The notes below the pieces were generated by a model. That model ran no database searches, was not told the origin of the DNA, and saw nothing but the letters and a program-made list of their open reading frames with translations. A stretch of 62,772 bases of DNA, counting the filler, from Sphacelaria rigidula (Eukaryota): the NCBI GenBank assembly GCA_964200075.2. It is 8 parts of 8 records of this genome, joined end to end, with 100 filler letters (N's around TTAATTAATTAA, not from the genome) between each part and the next. Parts side by side here need not be neighbours in the genome. Positions count along the whole stretch, not along the records: positions 15,721 to 23,480 come from CAXNAA020013545.1; 7 more parts are not named here. One strand, 5' to 3'. This document shows, in pieces, positions 15,620 through 26,600 of this stretch (the stretch's first letter is position 1; each line of letters opens with the position of its first letter). The translations under genes and the position numbers were made by a program.

Positions 15620-16245
15620 CNNNNNNNNNNNNNNNNNNNNNNNNNNNNNNNNNNNNNNNNNNNNTTAATTAATTAANNNNNNNNNNNNNNNNNNNNNNNN
15701 NNNNNNNNNNNNNNNNNNNNTGGGGCGCTGGGACGTGTTTTCGAGGTGTTCAGCCAGCGTGCAGCGCCGCTCCCCAAAGCGAGAAATGCGCTACCCTTTT
15801 TTGCTCCAAAAACACCAGGGTATACCCCCTTTTGTATATTGCCCTTCGGATTTCCCCCGAGATGACTGGTCCAAGTCCTTTCCAAGCGGCCGCATTTGCG
15901 ATACGTCTTCCTTCGTGGACAAGATTTCGGAGAATGTTACAGTAATCCTCCACCATATAAATAACGCTAGTTACCAATCTTGGTATGGGTGTGCATTCGA
16001 TCGTCCGGAACCCTTGCTTCTTTCGAAAGGGCTCAATTGTCACAAGAAAAAACACCAACTGATGAAAGACACCCACATTGAGCGTACGATAGTCGAAGGT
16101 GCTTGACGAATTGCGGTATCTTCATCACCACGTACGATAGATGATGGATATAGATGAGTACACCACCATCCCGCCCCGGACGTTGGACCTTGTGAAGGCG
16201 TCATGAGGAACACAAGATACTCTCGTCGGCGGCATTTTCCCTTTG

Positions 16246-16360
16246 CTGTGCTGTGCTGTGCTGTGCTGTGCTGTGCTGTGCTGTGCTGTGCTGTGCTGTG
16301 CTGTGCTGTGCTGTGCTGTGCTGTGCTGTGCTGTGCTGTGCTGTGCTGTGCTGTGCTGTG
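16246..16360. repeat. (CTGTG)23 pentanucleotide microsatellite
   Basis: Perfect 115-bp run. Confidence 0.98.
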
Positions 16361-17009
16361 AAGTACCACGGGCTGAGCAAGTTGCGTGCTCCTGCCACTT
16401 GCATCTCTACTATCGACAGCCCTATCATTTGAATCAAGTCAATCCGACCTCTTTTACGGGGGCAACTGGAGCTTGGTCGCTCTTGTCCGTGTAAATGTTA
16501 CGTACTGTACTGTCAGTCCTGTATGGCTTGAAAGAAAGAAGATTTGAATACAGTACAGAAATGTGCACATGTTGATCCACATTTCGCAAAGCCGAAAATC
16601 AGGGCAGTACTGCTCTCAGGGTATTTTCTGGACTTTTCCCTATCTCAAATTCGGAAAATGGCGGTCTTGTGGTGAGTCTACACGGCGGGAAAAGGCTTGC
16701 TGCGTGACTTGCTCAGAGTCCTACTCGAGTGCACATTTGTGAGGGCGGTGCTCTATACTGAGTTTTGTTGTGCGATGCAGTGCTTGCTACTTGGCGAGCT
16801 TGACTCGCTGGCGTGAAGTTTTATGAGCGATGCATGAGGACCCGACCCGACCCGACCTGACCCCGTGTATCCGCCTTTGCCTTTGCCCTTGCCCTTGTAC
16901 AGGGCAGGGCGCACAAGCGCATGCCAACATGTTGGCACGTTCGACCAGAAAAGTCCGCTGACTGTGTGTTGCACCTCGTTGCACCGATCATTTTGCGCGC
17001 ATTTCGCAG

Positions 17010-20000
17010 AGAGAAGAAATGGGAGGGGCTGAAGGGATTGGATGCGCGCACGGCGGGGTCTCTTATCCCCGATACCCTTCAGAAGATGGAGAACGATCAG
17101 GAGTTCAAGCTCACAGGTGCAATGTTGGCCTACATGCACACCCTCTACTGCTGCATCGTTAGCAGCGTATGGTGTGACTTGAAACAAACGGCACGATCAG
17201 GTCTTATGAAACATTTGTGGGGCATGACCAGGTACAGGCCCAGTGACCCAAGTTGCAGGTTGGAGAGTTGCAGATTGGAGAGCAACGTGTTGCCAAAGCA
17301 ACAAAACGAAATAGTTGTGAAGTAGTTTCCAAGACAAGTCCTGTCTCCTCTCCCCTGTCTCCGGTCTCAAGGCAGATTTTTCGCATGTACGCTCCGCTGC
17401 CCGACACCAGGGTTTACTGGTTTGTTTGTCTTGACGTGACATATATCCCTAATTCTAGTGGTTGATTCGAATATTGAGGTAGAGGTAGGTTGCGTTGAGT
17501 CATGTCACTTTTCACGGCCGGTTCGTCTTGACTGGGATCGACTACCAGCCAAACAGCCAAATCCATGGTATTTCGGTGATGCAGGGTTGTGGCGTCGTCG
17601 CACTGCCACTGGTGATGGGCACCGCACCAAAGACCCAGAAAGGCTCCCAACGGTTTTCCTTGAATCTATCGGGGAGAAGCCCCGACCACCCTCAAAACTT
17701 GGCAGTTCTGGAGGCGTTGATGGTCCGAAGGAGAAGAATTGAACTATCGAAAAAATTGATCAGGTTCTCCGCCCGTTCCAGGCATCCAGTCATCCAGGCA
17801 TCCGGGGGTTCCCGTGTGAAGGTCCCCGAAGTGCGGTATTGTACAGAATAAATACCTAAAAGTAAAGAATCAACAAATTCTGCGTCCTAGCGTACTCCAA
17901 GGAACGTTTGCACGAATTGTCGTGGCGTAGCTCAAGAAAGTGATGCACTGAGGTCATTTAACGCCCAACTTACCCGAAAAAGCCGTTTCAAATTTCAAAC
18001 AGGGCTTTTGGAAAGTCTGTATCCATTCAAGTCCACTTTTTGCAAAAAATCACGAATGTTCATGCCGATTCTTGGAGTCGGGCTCTGAAAAATTGCACAC
18101 AAAAGATACTAGGAGGCGTTTCGGAACTTGTACGAATGGACTTGTCTTCTCTTTTTTCGCCAGAAATTCCTCATACACAGTACATGTGTGCAAACCTTCA
18201 GAGTCAGACTCCAAGAATCGGCGTGAACATTTGCGGATGGGTGGATTTTGGGTCGAAAGCGTGAACCAGCCTGTACACATGGCACCTTGATGAGGTTCAC
18301 CATGCATTTGATGACGCATGTGTCTTTCAATATTCTACAGCGCATCACACCCCTTGGGTTGTGGAACCGCTAGAATGGGTGCGCTGACAGAGGCTCGCTT
18401 CCCTCGTGGGCCGTGACGGTTTTGCTTACTCGTGCCGTTGTGCTCCATGCTAATGCTTCTCTTGCTCCCAGCTGCCAAGTTGAAGAAGTTGGGGCAAAAA
18501 AAGCTCACGATGGAAGAACGAAAGATTAGGCGAAGAGCGCTGACGGACCGTGGACTGCCAAGTTTCCAGGAATTCATCAAGGAAAAGTGAGTTGCATGAC
18601 ACCTCAGCGGCTTTTGTGAAATAGGGCGGACTGATGCCCTCCTGGCAAAGTGACTGTGCGAGGTATAATGCTGTCGGTAGTGTTTGACATCATACTCCTT
18701 AGCAGCGTTAGAGTCGTGGTGACGTGCCCTGAAAGCCGTTGTTGCACGCTTGGTGACAATGTCAATGACTAACTGCAATAGAGTTCGATCCGACGGTGTG
18801 AAGTGGCTGATATCAACTCTCGGAGGCTTTCGGTCACATGCCGCGGTTCAGCGTGCAGTACCCTAATATTGCCGAGGTTGGGTGTCGGCTGTTTTTTGCC
18901 TTTTGTTATATTTTTTGTCAACAAGAGGTGGCGGTGTGCAGCCAAAGCATAAAAACAAACCGACATCAGGTTTTTGAAGGTTTGATGGGTTTTCCTTGGT
19001 TTCCGTGCAGGCACAGATGATGGGCATAAAGGCATAACGGCATGTTCTCGTGGTGGCGAGGAATTGCATAATCTATTACTCGTGTTGACACGCGGTTTCA
19101 TCGAAATTCTTGATACCTTACCTTGCACTAGTATAGTAGAGTAGTACAGTAGGAACGCCGCCTGATCATTCAAGGTTCGAGGTATGTAAGCAAGAAGCAA
19201 CGCACAGAGAGAGAGGCCCGGTGATAGTCTTCGCTGATGATGTAACTGTAGCGGTTATGGGAAAATAACAGCCTGTACTTTGCTCATGTACTGTATACAC
19301 TGCTGGCCCGTTTATGCTGATTCGAATTTACTCGTGCTCGAGGAGTGAATGTCATGTTGTTATGTTGCGTTGTGTGGTTTGCTCTCGTGGTCGTACGCAT
19401 TGGTCGACGATTTTGACGGTTTTGCAGGAATATTGCCATCGAGCGCGACACGTCCACGATTTTCCAGCTCAACATCGGTCTCTACTGCAACCAGGTGAGG
19501 GTAAAATGTACGGCCTGTGCTGCTTCCGCTGCGCATTGTCGACAACGGTAAGTGTCTCACGATGATGAATAGCGTGTTCCCATTCTGAAGCTCCCGTATT
19601 CGGTGTTGAGTGCTGTTTGTGGTTCATCAGGGATATATTATAAGTCTTGAAGGCCAAAGCGCTGCGTGAAGAACTGCTCTATGTGTACAGTGCGGAGTGA
19701 GCAGTCGAATATGATGTTGGAGTCTATCAAAGATGCCAGGCCTTCCAATTCCGTGTACGTGCTCGCTATCGCTAGCAAAAATACTCCACAAGTCACATAT
19801 GTACTGAAATGATCAAACTTGATCGAATTGTACGAGCAAGTGGCAAAAATGATGTCAAACCGCAGCGGAATGACAGTTCTGGTGTGTTTACTAGCTTGGT
19901 TTGATATGTTTTTTATGAAGAGGACCAAACACGTTGACTGGCGCATGTGTTTGAACTGTACGTTGGTGTCCCAAACAACACTACATATGTTAGTTGGGTT

Positions 20001-23000
20001 CATCACACGCCCTTGTAACCGCGCATCGCATGCCATACATACCTATGGGCAGGCCTGTAGCCACTGCCACGTGGAGTCATCTCCTCAGCGGACGGAGATG
20101 GTGACCAAAGATGTTGCTGACCGCTGTCTCAAGGTATGAAAATGTGGAGTGCGGAGTGCGGAGTGTGTGCTAGACTCGTCGATTTTTTTTCAGAAGGGCG
20201 TCTGTTTAGTCTGTTTGGCGTGCCTTCGCGCCTCCATGGATTTCGCCAAGATGTTGCCTGTCTTCCATGTGGTTGAAGCTGTAGGCGGCTCGCGATGGGC
20301 CTGATGTGAATGAGTCTGGTCCAGCAGCAAAGAACAGCAAAGGAAATTGGTATGTATTGATGTGTATGGGCCTTTACTCGATAGAGTCGACGAAAGTCGT
20401 ATTTTTTAAGTCAAAGCCTCCTCGTTCATTTTACGTACTTTTCAAGGGCATGACGGATGTACAAGTGGAAACGGAGAAAATATTATCGATAGATGTGAGG
20501 ATATTTCTGTGGTGACACACACAGACATTTCGCCGCCACAAACTTCCAAATCATTTTCAGCTGGTGAGGGTGGCCTACAATAATTTTGCCGCTGCTCGCC
20601 CCCGCACTCATGCGCCATCCATGCTCCGCGCTGGTGATGTGGCGATGCTATGGTGAGTTTTAGAATTTATGGGACGATACGATCCTCAATAGTATTAACG
20701 ACTAAAAAGGTGACGGAATATTTCCATGGCGCGACCAGTTTGCACGATTTATCATGAGATCATATGAACCATCGGAAATGTCGAATGATGTGACGGATAA
20801 TTGCAGATGTACGACCGTGTGATCAAATATCATATATCCTGGAGAGTAAAGACCTACATGTTTGAGGTCGTTACACTATTCTATTAACCGCTGCCCGTTG
20901 CTCTAATAGGTGATCAGAAATAGCCCCAGCATCAAGACCTTGGATATCACAGGAGGAGCACCCGAACTAAATGCCCACTTCCGTTACATGGTGGAACAAG
21001 CTCGTGAGGCCGGCGTGGAAGTGATTGACAGGTGCGCGAATAATAAAATACTGTGGGCGATTACCGTTTGACATCCCAAAGTACTGTAACCCTGAATGAG
21101 AATCGGTCATGCACCGCCCTGTTTACGTCTTTGTATCTGATGGCTTGCCGGTGTGGTCGTGCTGAAGTGCTTGTCGGCAAGAAACTCTTGAAGACATTGC
21201 GATCATTTCGATCCAGAGTTGAACCCTAGCCAAGTGCAGTGCGGGAAGATCATGGAGTAGGACGTCATGTTGCCATATGCCTTCCTGAACGCTAACAGCC
21301 TCTCTTGGAAGTGGCACAGGCCTGAGCAACGTGCAGAATGCGCCATCAGTTGAACCTCGATTGTTGAATACACCCTCCCGTGTGGGTAACGCCACAGGTG
21401 CAACTTAACGGTGCTTCAGGAGCCAGGGCAAGAAGACTTGGCGGAATTCTTAGCGACGAACAAGGTGCGTCATCCGACGCGTGTGGCAAATCAAATCAAA
21501 CTGCTCGAGCTTGTTGCTCGCTTCCTGCGCTCTCGGCTCTTGAGTGAGATTTTGATATCTGTCAGACGAAGTATGATCCCACGTGGTGGTGATGCTGCTT
21601 CTGATGGTGTTTCTATTGTGTAGCTTCACTTCCAGACTTGAGAGCCACGTCCTTCTGCTTCTCTGGGTATCCTCTGGGTATCCCCACTTTTTTTTTGGAA
21701 TCTTGATTCGATTCAAATAGATTCGATTCGTGGGTTCTTGGGAACGGCTTGGTTTTGGTGAGCTGCAAAAAATATTTGAATACGCCACTGTACCTTGTTG
21801 CACGGCATTCCAAGTACTCGAGTCCGTCCAGTCAAGAACAAATCGATTCATATGTCGTGTTAACAGCAGGTCGATTGACTTTGAAGTTGATCATTGTGCG
21901 GTACGAAGAGCACCTAAAATTCAAATTCATTTTATGACCCGCTGGTTGGGGCCCAAAAACATGATGTGATGACAAATTGTCGCCGTGCTGTCATGACACA
22001 GTTCGACACCGGTGAGCAACTGGCCTGAAATTTGTTGGATCTTAGCGCAGCTGTGATGAGTACGCACCCACCACCGCTTCCGTGAAGCGAGCAAACTTCC
22101 CCTTGATGCTCACCGTTTATCGTACAATGCCATCCATGTGTGTACTTGATAGGTGCACGTAGTGGCATCCCTTCCGTGCTATTCGCCCAAGAATGTCAAT
22201 ACGCAGCGAGGCAGTGGCGTTTTTGATCGCAGTATCCAAGGTCTAATGAAGCTCAACGAGCTCGGATACGGCAAGGACGGCACAGGTCTCAAGTTGGACC
22301 TTGTATTCAACCCTGTGGGTGGATACTTGCCGCCGGAACAGGTGAATTTGGGTTATTGAAAGTCATCCCTCTTTCGCTCGTGTTCCTCGACAGAGTTTGA
22401 TTTCATTCTTCAATGATTTGAATAGTGTAGTTTTTTTAATGGAAACCTGACGTGACTGCGTCTGTTAAGAGTGCACCACGCATGCAGGCGAGCCCCCCGG
22501 CTGGTGATTGATCGCGATTATTCACTGTGTTGTCGATTATTTAGCGTTCATGTGTTGGAATAATGTGTTGCGTGTTGCGTGTTACGTGCGGCACTGTGCA
22601 GCAAACACGGGTGATTTACCGTCGTTCGTTTCAACTTGTAAGTTCTTCCGTTTTATTGCTGCCTGGATGTTGCCTTGCCTTGCGAAGGGAGCCTTGGAAG
22701 CGAAGTACAAGGAAGAACTGGACGAGACCTTCGGCATCGTGTTTAACAATCTTTTCACCATCACCAACATGCCTATCAAGGTGCAGTCAAACAGCAGTCA
22801 AACAGCAGTCAAACAGCCTGCACTTTTCTCACCACAAAAAATTCGCCGTCCGTGAAGGGTCATCGGTAGTTGTTGTGGGCCACTTGATGTTGTGCCGTAT
22901 TCGTCTTGTCCACTAACGAGATTACCGCTTCATGTCTTGCACATGCATTTTCACACTCGTTTTGACAATGACACAACGGCAGCGTTTTGCGGACTTCCTG

Positions 23001-23083
23001 TACCGTCGCAACGAGCTTCAGGAATACATGGAACTCTTGGTGCGCAACTTCAACCCCACGGCATGCAGTGGGCTTATGTGCAG
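17010..23083 (+). CDS. arsS: Radical SAM protein, ArsS (arsenosugar biosynthesis)/DUF3641 family; partial, N-terminus unresolved, C-terminal exons absent from contig
   Basis: Nine phase-compatible AG/GT-bounded exons: 17010-17116, 18472-18586, 19428-19494, 20053-20133, 20910-21031, 21398-21464, 22153-22341, 22688-22780, 22983-23083. The spliced product contains TIFQLNIGLYCNQACSHCHVESSP (CxxxCxxC), LDITGGAPELN, VIDRCNLTVL, VVASLPCY, QRGSGVF, LDLVFNP, FNNLFTITNMPIKRF and FNP....LMCR. These are the successive motifs I recognise from this family. Confidence 0.9.
18055..18231. repeat. Inverted repeat (47-bp arms) inside an intron of the radical SAM gene
   Basis: 18055-18101 is the reverse complement of 18185-18231 with about 6 mismatches. 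Confidence 0.8.
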
Positions 23084-23639
23084 GTGACCGTGCGTTGGTA
23101 TGTGTTTTGCACCTTGATCGACGGGTTTCGCTAATGTTGATTCGTGCTCTGAGAAGAGAACCCTCGACAGTTCTGCCGTGAAATAGAGAATGCTGAGACA
23201 CACCCAAGCTGGGTAGGTAAATTCACTGTGTGTGTCGCTCGCAAGGTCACGCCGATCAACAATGTGTAGGAGGCATGCAGGGATTGAATCGCCCCCCCTA
23301 CGAGCTGGGCCAGCTTAAAAACGGATTTACGCTCTCAAAGCGATATCTCAACGACACAGACAAGTTTGGCCGTGATCCGCATATCGTTTTAACCGTTTTG
23401 GGACTGAAGCTCACGAACACCACGTTCACGACGTGTTCGTAAAATAATAATTAACAAGTCTGGGAGCGACCTGTCCAATCNNNNNNNNNNNNNNNNNNNN
23501 NNNNNNNNNNNNNNNNNNNNNNNNTTAATTAATTAANNNNNNNNNNNNNNNNNNNNNNNNNNNNNNNNNNNNNNNNNNNNAGGGATGCGAGGTCAATGGT
23601 CTTATGGCTATGGCATGCACGATCATGAGTACGACTGCT

Positions 23640-26600
23640 GCCGAGATAGCCCCCCCCAAAACCGGCCAAAAACGTGCACGGAGGCGATGATCGGAACTGC
23701 GTTAAAGCTGGTTTCGTGCCGCACGACGCGACTGATTTGGGCGTTATAGCTGATTTCGGACTGCTACACGTCTTTTATGTGGGCGAAATAGCTGCAAACG
23801 AGCCCAATAGTGGAATCGCAGCCGGTTCGTTGGATGGTGCCGGTGCACGTTTTGTGGGGGGGCTATCTCGGCATTAGTCGTACACTCCGCCAATAGCGGG
23901 GATGTGTTGTGTGGCGTCTGCGTCTAGTTCGGTGGTGGGGAGCGAGAACGACACGCGACGTGAACCGCGGGATGGAGCACGCGCCACCGGGGTTTGCTCC
24001 GCGGACTCGCTGCCGGCCGGCCTTCCTTGGATCTTGTCATCCCTCGCTTCATCGGGCGTCGGGATCGCTTGCTGTGGGGCGGGGAGAGGAGAAGGGGGAA
24101 CATACGCCCATGTTACGAGCCTGGTCGAAATAGTTTGTCCTGTTTCCGTCATCACTCTCACAGCATCACGCGGGTATGCTGGGGCTGAGCTAAGGTACTA
24201 GCCCCTCTGAGCGTTTCGTCGTAACTTTTCTGTCCTCTGAACCCTACAAAACCCAGGTATTAGAAAAGGGAGAAGGTTGGTTTCGGGTGGTACTTCGTGC
24301 CACAATTCGGGTGGCGTCTTGTTGCCCGGGTTAGCCGAGGTCGCAGTACAGTTCAAAGCATGGCATGCTCAGTTAGCTTGTCCCGCCCACAGATTCTTGC
24401 TCGTTGGAATATTCTGGTTCGGGTATATCTGCGCTGCCTGAATTTTGACTGCAAGGCCGGCCGACTTATGATGCCAATGGCCCGTTCCGCTACGCCGTTG
24501 AACTGTGGGGAGGCAGCAGTTGTTTTCTCTTGCTTTATTTCCTCTCTATCACATAGTTCCTCGAACGCCCCCTCCGAGAATTCACCTCCACCATCACCGC
24601 GAACCTTCTCGATTTTCGCGGGTGAACTTCTGCGATGTACTTACTAAAGTACTGTTCAGCCTCGTCCTTTGTGCGCAGAAAAAACAATCCAGTATGCCGC
24701 GAGCAGTCATCACGTACCATCATCATGTATGACTTTCCTCCCCAAGATCTAATTGGTTTTGGACCTGTAAGATCGGCAAACACTCTGGATACGGGCTTAA
24801 CTGCTCATGTGTGAGTTGATCTTGGGATTGGCCGTCGCAATCCTTTTCCTTCCGAGCATGCTCGGCACAGTCTCAACTCACCGCGCAGCTCCACTCCGAG
24901 CTGCTTTGCTGTCTGCCGGAGCAGGTCCCTGTGGACATGCGCGTGTTTGCAGTGGAAGTCGTTGATATCATGAACGTGGGTCAGGTAGTTCCCCCGGGGC
25001 AATTACAGCGCATGCTGACGCACGCTTGTCATGACCGTTTGGATAGATGCGTTGGGCGTAAATTTTCAATTGTTTGTGCTGACCGGGGATTTTCAGGGTA
25101 TTTCCTGAATTCAACTCAACCCGGAAGCCGTTGCTAGACCCAATGTAGGTGTGACCTGCGTTTGACATCCTCCTGGTCAATGACACCAGATGGTAACAGA
25201 CGCAATGTGCCTGGTCTACATTTTTCAAATGCAAGACTACATCACGTCCGTCAGATCGTAAAGATAGAGTCAAATTACCTCTTCCCATGATCGGGTAGGT
25301 ACCACCGCCCGTACACCGTAGCACCCTACCAACGCACTTTCTATAATCCGTCATCTTACTCGAATCTGGAGAAAAGTGCCAAGTGGCCCCCGTATCAAGT
25401 ACCCACGGTTCGCCCCCATCAGACTGCTCTACACCCCCTTTCCCAGTTACAAACGCATACTCGCCTGTGTGGACCTCATCCACTGTCATGTCGATGCTGG
25501 TGAAAGTTTCTGCATCAGCATCGGAGCAAACGGAGTCGTCGTCCACAAAGTCTTCCACCACGCCCATTACAATCGCTGCGTCCTCTACAGTGCTTTGCCA
25601 GTCAATCAGTTGATGTCCTCTCTTCCCGCATCTACCGCAATATCTGTTTGGACAGTCTCTCGCTCGATGTGTAGACATCTTCTGACAAGCGTGGTATCTC
25701 CACGTCGTCGAAGCCCCCGACTGCTCGTTGACGATGGAGCCGGCTACTGGCTGTTTTTGCCCTGGCCCCCGTCACCTCCGCGATCTGGGTTCTGGATCTT
25801 CCCCGGTTTGTCATTCCGGTGTGAGCCGTTGGGTTTGCCGGGTTGACCCTTGACGGCAAGGGCCCGGTCACCTGAGAAAACATTCTTCCTCTTGACGAGT
25901 TCCTGCTTGAAAAGTGCCGATTCAAAACGCTTTCGAACCGACGTCACTACGACTTCCCTCGTGAGTGGCCCCTCGCGCTCCTCCAGCACCTGCTTTTGGT
26001 AGTTGTACTCACAGGGAGGCGCATTGGCAAATTTGAGGAGAGTGTGCGCCTCCGTCAGGATGATGTTGGTGTCGTATGATCGCAACTCTCTCGCCACCTC
26101 TTCCATCTCGATTACTTTTTGAACCGAATCGTCGCGAACTCCAACCTTCACGTGATCATACTTTTTCAAACGTGCTTACCTAGCCCCGTTGGTATTGGGG
26201 CTGTAAAATTCGTTCAACTCACACCACACAGCTGCTGGAGACGGAAGTCGGAACAGAATATCCCGGTCCCGCTTATGTTCGAGACTCGCCACCAACATTT
26301 TCCTCGCTCTGACGTTTGCGACTGCAGTGCCTTTTCCGTGCCTTGCCTCAAGATAACTCAAGGATACCGCCTTGTTCCCCTCCTCCACATCGAACGCACT
26401 ATCTTCCGACATAGTGAACACCCAGTCAATTGCTTCACTCCTAGCAAACATTATGAGCTCATGGCTGTAGTGGTTGAACTCTGAACGTTTTCCAGAGAAC
26501 TTGGGTACAATTGCCTTGAAAACTTGCACCCCATAAACATTTGGGACACTTGGTCTATCATGACCGAACACTGCAACGGACTCTCTTGCGGGGTCTGCAC

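Follow-up and report, generated by a model that had tools for sequence, protein, structure and literature searches.

A complete, spliced nuclear gene of the ArsS family in the brown alga Sphacelaria rigidula: a candidate for arsenosugar synthesis within a eukaryote-wide clade

The window analysed here is a stretch of 62,772 nucleotides from the brown alga Sphacelaria rigidula, made of unrelated contigs of about 7.76 kb chained through N linkers and drawn from a 244 Mb assembly of 27,214 contigs (GCA_964200075.2). Its third contig (15721-23480, here C13545) carries part of a gene for an ArsS-family enzyme of the radical S-adenosylmethionine (SAM) type; because the parts are unrelated contigs, neighbouring content in the window is uninformative about this gene. 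A first-pass annotation had reported nine exons that splice in phase into an uninterrupted protein whose CxxxCxxC motif is split by an intron, and both statements proved exact. The nine plus-strand exons, 17010-23083, join to 313 codons without a stop when read from 17011, the first full codon, and each of the five remaining frames meets between 5 and 23 stops. Every donor is GT and every acceptor AG, the intron lengths are 1355, 841, 558, 776, 366, 688, 346 and 202, and the phase-0 intron at 19495-20052 divides the motif after its first cysteine. All eight introns appear as GT..AG joints in each of three RNA-like runs from two studies, one contig per run, and in none (0 of 1) of the DNA-like runs. 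The type of the RNA-like runs is a guess or unknown, and no run is recorded as RNA; the joints themselves show a spliced transcript. Four public runs, the three RNA-like ones among them, contain 12-13% of the words of the stretch, approximately the exon share.

The nine exons of the earlier gene model were correct, but that model was incomplete at both ends, with two 5' and two 3' exons lying elsewhere in the assembly. A DUF3641 search of the genome found exons 12 and 13 on contig C23585, in matching phases, with the YDCDFN motif and Cys-rich tail that had been expected of the missing 3' end, and in all three runs the loose RNA end beyond 23084 matches where exon 12 begins. The RNA loose end before 17008 has a single occurrence in the genome, on contig C19310, where two more exons give the gene start. 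The complete model has 13 exons and 12 introns across three contigs and encodes 478 residues without a stop; it is 76% identical to a Scytosiphon protein from residue 1 to 478. For the joints between exons 1 and 2 and between exons 12 and 13 the evidence is canonical splice sites, phase and homology, as RNA shows neither directly. The features placed on C13545 and C23585 are as follows.

17010..17116, plus strand: exon 3 of 13 (residues 82-118), first half of the N-terminal extension; AG/GT sites, RNA-like coverage, 5' loose end leading to C19310
18472..18586, plus strand: exon 4 (residues 118-156), second half of the extension, a basic helix; joints of 1355 and 841 in all three RNA-like runs, extension alignment
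19428..19494, plus strand: exon 5 (residues 156-178), start of the radical SAM core, with C176 as first Cys of CxxxCxxC; in-frame join, RNA joints
20053..20133, plus strand: exon 6 (residues 179-205), C180 and C183 of CxxxCxxC; TIGR04167 positions 21-47, E 9e-7; joints
20910..21031, plus strand: exon 7 (residues 206-246), GGAPE SAM-binding motif; TIGR04167 positions 51-86, E 2e-10; joints
21398..21464, plus strand: exon 8 (residues 246-268), radical SAM core; joints of 366 and 688, in frame
22153..22341, plus strand: exon 9 (residues 269-331), SLPCY motif and end of the core; TIGR04167 positions 111-172, E 9e-24; joints
22688..22780, plus strand: exon 10 (residues 332-362), start of DUF3641; PF12345 over cut-off, TIGR04167 E 7e-10; joints
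22983..23083, plus strand: exon 11 (residues 363-396), DUF3641 with C395; phase-2 donor joining exon 12
Contig C23585 (locus L001, 295-418): exon 12, 3' exon; RNA loose end, phase match
Contig C23585 (locus L001, 1018-1143): exon 13, 3' exon; canonical sites, phase, homology
23300..23373, no strand given: inverted-repeat arm in intron 11; its partner arm stands at the start of contig C23585 (L001, 1-74)

A search of the genome with TIGR04167 gave seven matches, every one an exon of this gene, which appears to be single copy in the assembly. The two arms of the intron 11 repeat share 76% identity over 74 bases on opposite strands (E 8e-12), and the summed DNA depth of the repeat is 131,838, compared with about 70 elsewhere; this high-copy inverted repeat probably caused the assembly break within the gene. 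It resembles a miniature inverted-repeat transposable element, and pieces of it occur in RNA-like contigs too. Intron 2 spans the other contig break, is at least 5.7 kb long and holds a perfect 5-base microsatellite of 23.4 copies (window 16244-16360). An in-frame upstream ATG at 16921 was ruled out as the start, since the RNA-like contigs exit at 17008-17010 and continue on C19310. NCBI already lists the window part: its unnamed partial protein P0001, given as Sphacelaria rigidula by the source, lies on a 7760-base contig and is identical at 315 of 315 residues.

Profile searches bear out the ArsS-family assignment made in the first-pass annotation. The 315-residue window part scores 341.9 bits against TIGR04167, the ArsS model (cut-off 300), with the next family at 37.8. 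Full-length stramenopile orthologues, brown-algal and xanthophyte, score 421-424 bits (for these and the window part the next family is at 36-39) and four animal orthologues 402-411, and across the eight eukaryotic proteins scanned no other family exceeds 39 bits. When exons are scanned singly, 7 of 10 pieces (eight of the nine window exons and two from C23585) match TIGR04167 collinearly; two extension exons and one 22-residue exon give no match to it. The radical SAM core model PF04055 reaches 41.8 bits against a cut-off of 29.5, its CxxxCxxC cysteines being C176, C180 and C183. PF12345 (DUF3641), named earlier as a check on the assignment, is over cut-off on four exons, DCDFN and CxxCxAGxGSxC are present, and the expected C-terminal cysteines are retained as C395, C410, C462, C465 and C473.

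Cyanobacterial ArsS, reportedly characterised in Synechocystis sp. PCC 6803 in work attributed to Xue et al. 2019 and Cheng et al. 2021, shares with the algal protein, itself over the TIGR04167 cut-off, a radical SAM core with CxxxCxxC, the DUF3641 region and the C-terminal CxxCxAGxGSxC, which occurs in 30 of 30 cyanobacterial loci. As a comparison set we took the 86 columns invariant in at least 29 of these 30 loci. The 478-residue model keeps 79 of the 86, including all eight cysteines, against 73-83 in six bacterial members and 78-82 in four other eukaryotes. TIGR04167 is over cut-off in 43 of the 121 cyanobacterial genomes sampled. The algal protein differs from the cyanobacterial one by about 150 extra N-terminal residues, comprising a leader and a conserved extension, and its gene by 12 introns and the lack of a linked arsM.

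The predicted structure of the Scytosiphon orthologue (mean predicted local distance difference test score 76, predicted template modelling score 0.77, residues 1-75 under 50) contains a radical SAM core, a helical extension and a C-terminal domain. Its best fold matches are the SPASM/twitch enzymes SkfB (6EFN; Z 16.8, root-mean-square deviation (rmsd) 3.3, 231 residues aligned) and BlsE (7VOB; Z 15.6, rmsd 4.4, 257 aligned), which nevertheless share just 15-17% identity with it and act on unrelated substrates. A search by sequence found no solved structure of ArsS (best E 0.0025). The spacing C395-x9-G-x4-C410 fits the auxiliary-cluster motif CX9-15GX4C; predicted fold and cysteine spacing are compatible with a SPASM/twitch auxiliary [4Fe-4S] cluster on the C-terminal cysteines. 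ArsL, of the arsinothricin pathway, is likewise a radical SAM enzyme; it uses SAM and As(III) to make a C-As bond, and its C-terminal cysteines are proposed as arsenic binders (10.1101/2024.02.01.577332). It differs from ArsS in moving a 3-amino-3-carboxypropyl group and not an adenosyl group (10.1101/2024.02.01.577332; 10.64898/2026.04.29.721666), and no ArsL model is among the family matches of the algal protein.

Orthologues were found well outside the brown algae. The best 120 of 211 matches to the largest exon include named proteins from eight brown algae, Tribonema and eleven animals (seven bivalves, two starfish, one sponge and one annelid, marine or freshwater); seven of the eleven animal matches lie on scaffolds of 40 Mb or more. 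Further searches added Chrysoparadoxa, Heterosigma, the chlorarachniophyte Amorphochlora and the streptophyte Closterium, and two Atlas clusters are 81% and 96% eukaryotic. These searches show presence only and do not tell whether vertebrates, insects, fungi or land plants lack the family. The Sphacelaria protein is 72-76% identical to named full-length brown-algal proteins and 54-58% identical to animal ones. None of these orthologues is characterised; they include the Ectocarpus 'Fe-S oxidoreductase' and proteins of Tribonema, Heterosigma, Amorphochlora, Closterium, bivalves, starfish, Sycon and Owenia, and they share with the Sphacelaria protein one clade and one extension.

The N-terminal extension ahead of the core, noted in the first-pass annotation as a feature of the algal protein, is present but is no algal speciality, being common to other algae, the chlorarachniophyte and animals, and it is itself preceded by a leader resembling a transit peptide. 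A profile built from 24 carriers matches 78 of 277 collected proteins, every named one eukaryotic, and has no match in the open reading frames (ORFs) of 162 bacterial loci. Taken alone, the extension has no counterpart in the Atlas (best score 0.75), and searching by words brought up only 15 proteins. As judged from the sequences, this helical extension (residues ~58-150), found only in the eukaryotic clade, marks a eukaryote-wide ArsS group and not an alga-specific one. Proteins P0133 and P0144 form a divergent, probably eukaryotic group with a different leader and a variant extension missed by the profile.

We built a maximum-likelihood tree from 66 rows (LG+G4, midpoint root, no outgroup, bootstrap not fully settled). 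In it the Sphacelaria model falls among the brown algae (100/98), branching after Discosporangium and lying outside a group of Ectocarpus and Ascophyllum. This branching fits vertical inheritance and excludes recent contamination; as the first-pass annotation had held, the gene is host-encoded and nuclear, being spliced and branching inside the brown algae. Eight animal or animal-like rows form one clade (96/96), and all 25 rows labelled eukaryotic, some of which lack a species name and were assigned through the extension, belong to a single clade of 26 rows (97/95). The eukaryotic clade is nested among bacterial members, including cyanobacterial ones linked to arsM, with a weakly resolved backbone. 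Cyanobacterial ArsS occupies more than one place in the tree and is not sister to the eukaryotic clade in the best tree, though the approximately unbiased (AU) test does not reject a joining of eukaryotes to the main cyanobacterial clade (p 0.36; in a quick tree p 0.65, where the joined tree scored higher). An initial reading of a FastTree tree, by which a cyanobacterial origin was excluded, was dropped after these two tests. Median core identity is 45% to cyanobacteria compared with 51% to a Bdellovibrionota/Deltaproteobacteria-like set.

Residues 1 to ~45 read as a cleavable transit peptide. The Sphacelaria protein has no acidic residue before position 45, and at residue 39 it has an R-3-like presequence cleavage motif. 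Among 28 N-termini chosen from apparently full-length extension carriers, 27 show no more than one acidic residue within their first 30 and every one of the 28 has a net positive charge, against 4 of 89 mature windows. Mitochondria supply Fe-S clusters, reductant and SAM. Because animals have this leader too, it is most simply read as a mitochondrial presequence, and given the rest of the interpretation we regard a mitochondrial destination as fairly likely. A second methionine, at residue 49 (C19310, 4844-4680, minus strand; L005, 1963-1799), stands directly after the putative leader; it is common to other brown algae, Tribonema and Chrysoparadoxa, and several database entries begin there. 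A start at this position could yield a leaderless, cytosolic isoform.

The animal orthologues differ from the algal protein at their C-termini. Exactly before the last cysteine of the terminal motif, 30 of 185 proteins with that motif end, among them 9 of the 11 named animals; these bivalve, sponge and annelid proteins (P0021, P0025, P0027, P0028, P0030, P0031, P0039, P0040 and P0056) end at GSS, and the two starfish orthologues carry Cys at the terminal position. P0133 and P0144 also end at GSS. PMC13188914 gives GxxU as the selenocysteine motif of TIGR04167. Taken with the truncated ends, this suggests that the nine animal orthologues are probably selenoproteins, mis-annotated by a stop at UGA. 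The Sphacelaria gene has TGC (C473) at the family's Cys/selenocysteine position and is thus not of the selenoprotein form. Among 187 bacterial matches none has TGA in place of the last Cys codon, so that the selenocysteine position rests on PMC13188914. The ArsS family may already be catalogued as a selenoprotein of unknown function, under the name 'FeS oxidoreductase' in PMC7539508 and as 'RSAM' in oyster.

ArsS adenosylates dimethylarsenite to give 5'-deoxy-5'-dimethylarsinoyladenosine (DDMAA), according to PMC13598754 and 10.64898/2026.04.29.721666, and in Synechocystis arsS is co-transcribed with arsM, according to 10.1101/2022.09.23.509062. Fusions of ArsS to ArsM occur in 6 of 30 distinct representatives scanned (from 150, mostly long ones); in these six (P0165, P0178, P0199, P0217, P0249 and P0255) both domain orders are seen. 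Of 30 cyanobacterial loci, 16 have an ArsM-like gene no further than 1.5 kb away. In the available DNA of bacterial loci one is found in 16 of 80 collected with a cyanobacterial query and in 18 of 80 collected with a deltaproteobacterial query, or 11 of 30 for those loci of 8 kb or more; a Burkholderia plasmid copy of ArsS has no ArsM within 7 kb. The link between ArsS and ArsM is family-wide but not universal. Other neighbours in the bacterial loci nearest the eukaryotes (L088-L167, for example L152:3974-5128 and L113:68-775) form clusters present in 53, 29 and 23 of the 80; by eye, the second looks like a phosphate transporter and the third like a glycosyltransferase.

By analogy with the cyanobacterial enzyme, we think it likely that the Sphacelaria protein is an organelle ArsS enzyme, probably mitochondrial, which adenosylates dimethylarsenite in the first committed step towards arsenosugars. 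The protein would be imported into the organelle and its leader (residues 1 to ~45) cleaved. A [4Fe-4S] cluster on C176, C180 and C183 would cleave SAM to a 5'-deoxyadenosyl radical, and a methyltransferase of ArsM/AS3MT type would supply dimethylarsenite; addition of the radical to it would give DDMAA, the first committed arsenosugar intermediate, with adenine loss and glycosylation then carried out by other enzymes. The C-terminal cysteines C395, C410, C462, C465 and C473 probably bind an auxiliary cluster, the As(III) substrate, or both.

Several observations weigh against this reading. No arsM or AS3MT was found in the Sphacelaria assembly with eight queries (three NCBIfam profiles, two proteins, two DNA patterns and one Pfam search), all bacterial or generic and none brown-algal, run on a fragmented and intron-rich assembly; the arsM homologue looked for since the first-pass annotation is thus absent from the results, and the same method with TIGR04167 found seven exons of the ArsS gene. 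Eleven methyltransferase loci from the Pfam search were rejected as AS3MT, at most 15 bits being scored on an AS3MT-like profile, and no named brown-algal protein is among the best 120 of 7988 matches to an AS3MT-like bacterial query. Most bacterial loci show no ArsM in the available DNA (62 of 80 in the closest set, 19 of 30 among loci of at least 8 kb), so enzymes of this family may act on more than one substrate. Core identity to cyanobacterial ArsS is only 43-49% (median 45%), the characterised Synechocystis protein was not identified among 80 named loci and is not in the trees, and the trees leave the bacterial donor of the eukaryotic gene unsettled. Retention in animals is unexpected for a purely algal pathway. 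The brown-algal leader opens with a mildly hydrophobic stretch, and plastid or dual targeting of the brown-algal protein may occur.

Some of these same points would be explained if the eukaryotic clade had kept the fold for a different mitochondrial task, adenosyl addition to or hydrogen abstraction from a non-arsenic substrate, for example a thiol, selenol or phosphorus compound, with any arsenic activity as a side reaction. The clade is retained in a sponge, an annelid, starfish and seven bivalves as well as in algae, its conserved extension is absent from the ORFs of the 162 bacterial loci, and to this are added the missing arsM of Sphacelaria and the many bacterial members with none nearby. 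We nonetheless consider such a change of function unlikely: no family-defining residue differs from cyanobacterial ArsS beyond the bacterial spread, and ArsM fusions or neighbours turn up throughout the bacterial tree, also in those groups that most resemble the eukaryotes. AS3MT is reported in animals, in stramenopiles, alveolates and Rhizaria (SAR), and in green and red algae, and is listed for Ectocarpus, in PMC5398495.

That the enzyme has ArsS activity but derives from the cyanobacterial endosymbiont and works in the plastid seems improbable to us. The AU test does not reject the joined tree, the leader of the green-alga-like member P0128 reads to us like a chloroplast transit peptide, and the hydrophobic opening of the brown-algal leader points the same way; but animals, which have no plastid, carry the same clade with a leader of that kind, eukaryotes and cyanobacteria are not joined in the best tree, and of the identity medians given above the cyanobacterial one is the lower. 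No bipartite motif of ASAF type is visible. As for an artefact, a pseudogene or bacterial contamination, the fragmentation of the assembly, the spread of the gene over three contigs and the two joints not seen directly in RNA are what might raise the suspicion. We give it practically no weight: the eight spliced introns in three of three RNA-like runs refute it for the window part, and 478 codons without a stop, full-length identity of 76% to a brown-algal orthologue and a branching order that follows brown-algal relationships speak against it for the whole.

Elsewhere in the window, an ORF at 24971-25771 on the minus strand, on the next and unrelated contig, matches the Pol polyprotein beta-barrel domain PF22936 at 31.8 bits and is a retrotransposon remnant. 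Long plus-strand ORFs on the last contig (55088-56518 and 60491-62605) give one RING finger and one weak, repeated LRRCT-like match.

Arsenosugars are the main form of arsenic in most algae and reach human food through seaweed and shellfish. The family and its reaction are already known, and family assignment alone is routine; what appears to be new, on the comparisons made here, is a eukaryotic, leader-bearing ArsS subfamily. The literature searched, which most subscription papers lie outside, gave no description of a eukaryotic or animal ArsS. A 2024 review (PMC11228943) states that brown algae make arsenosugars directly, calls the algal enzymes that attach ribose to DMA unidentified, and ascribes the arsenosugars of vent mussels to bacteria. 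The Sphacelaria gene is a complete, expressed, single-copy candidate for the algal arsenosugar enzyme, and orthologues in tractable models (Ectocarpus and other stramenopiles) make the candidate testable. The unexpected animal orthologues raise a second testable question, that of arsenosugar synthesis by bivalves and other invertebrates. As a tentative and rather doubtful extension, an ancient, eukaryote-wide, mitochondrion-targeted ArsS subfamily might make the arsenosugar precursor in seaweeds, microalgae, bivalves, starfish, sponges and annelids, as a selenoenzyme in most such animals. If that were true, the arsenosugars of shellfish, usually ascribed to diet or bacteria, would be made in part by the animals themselves.

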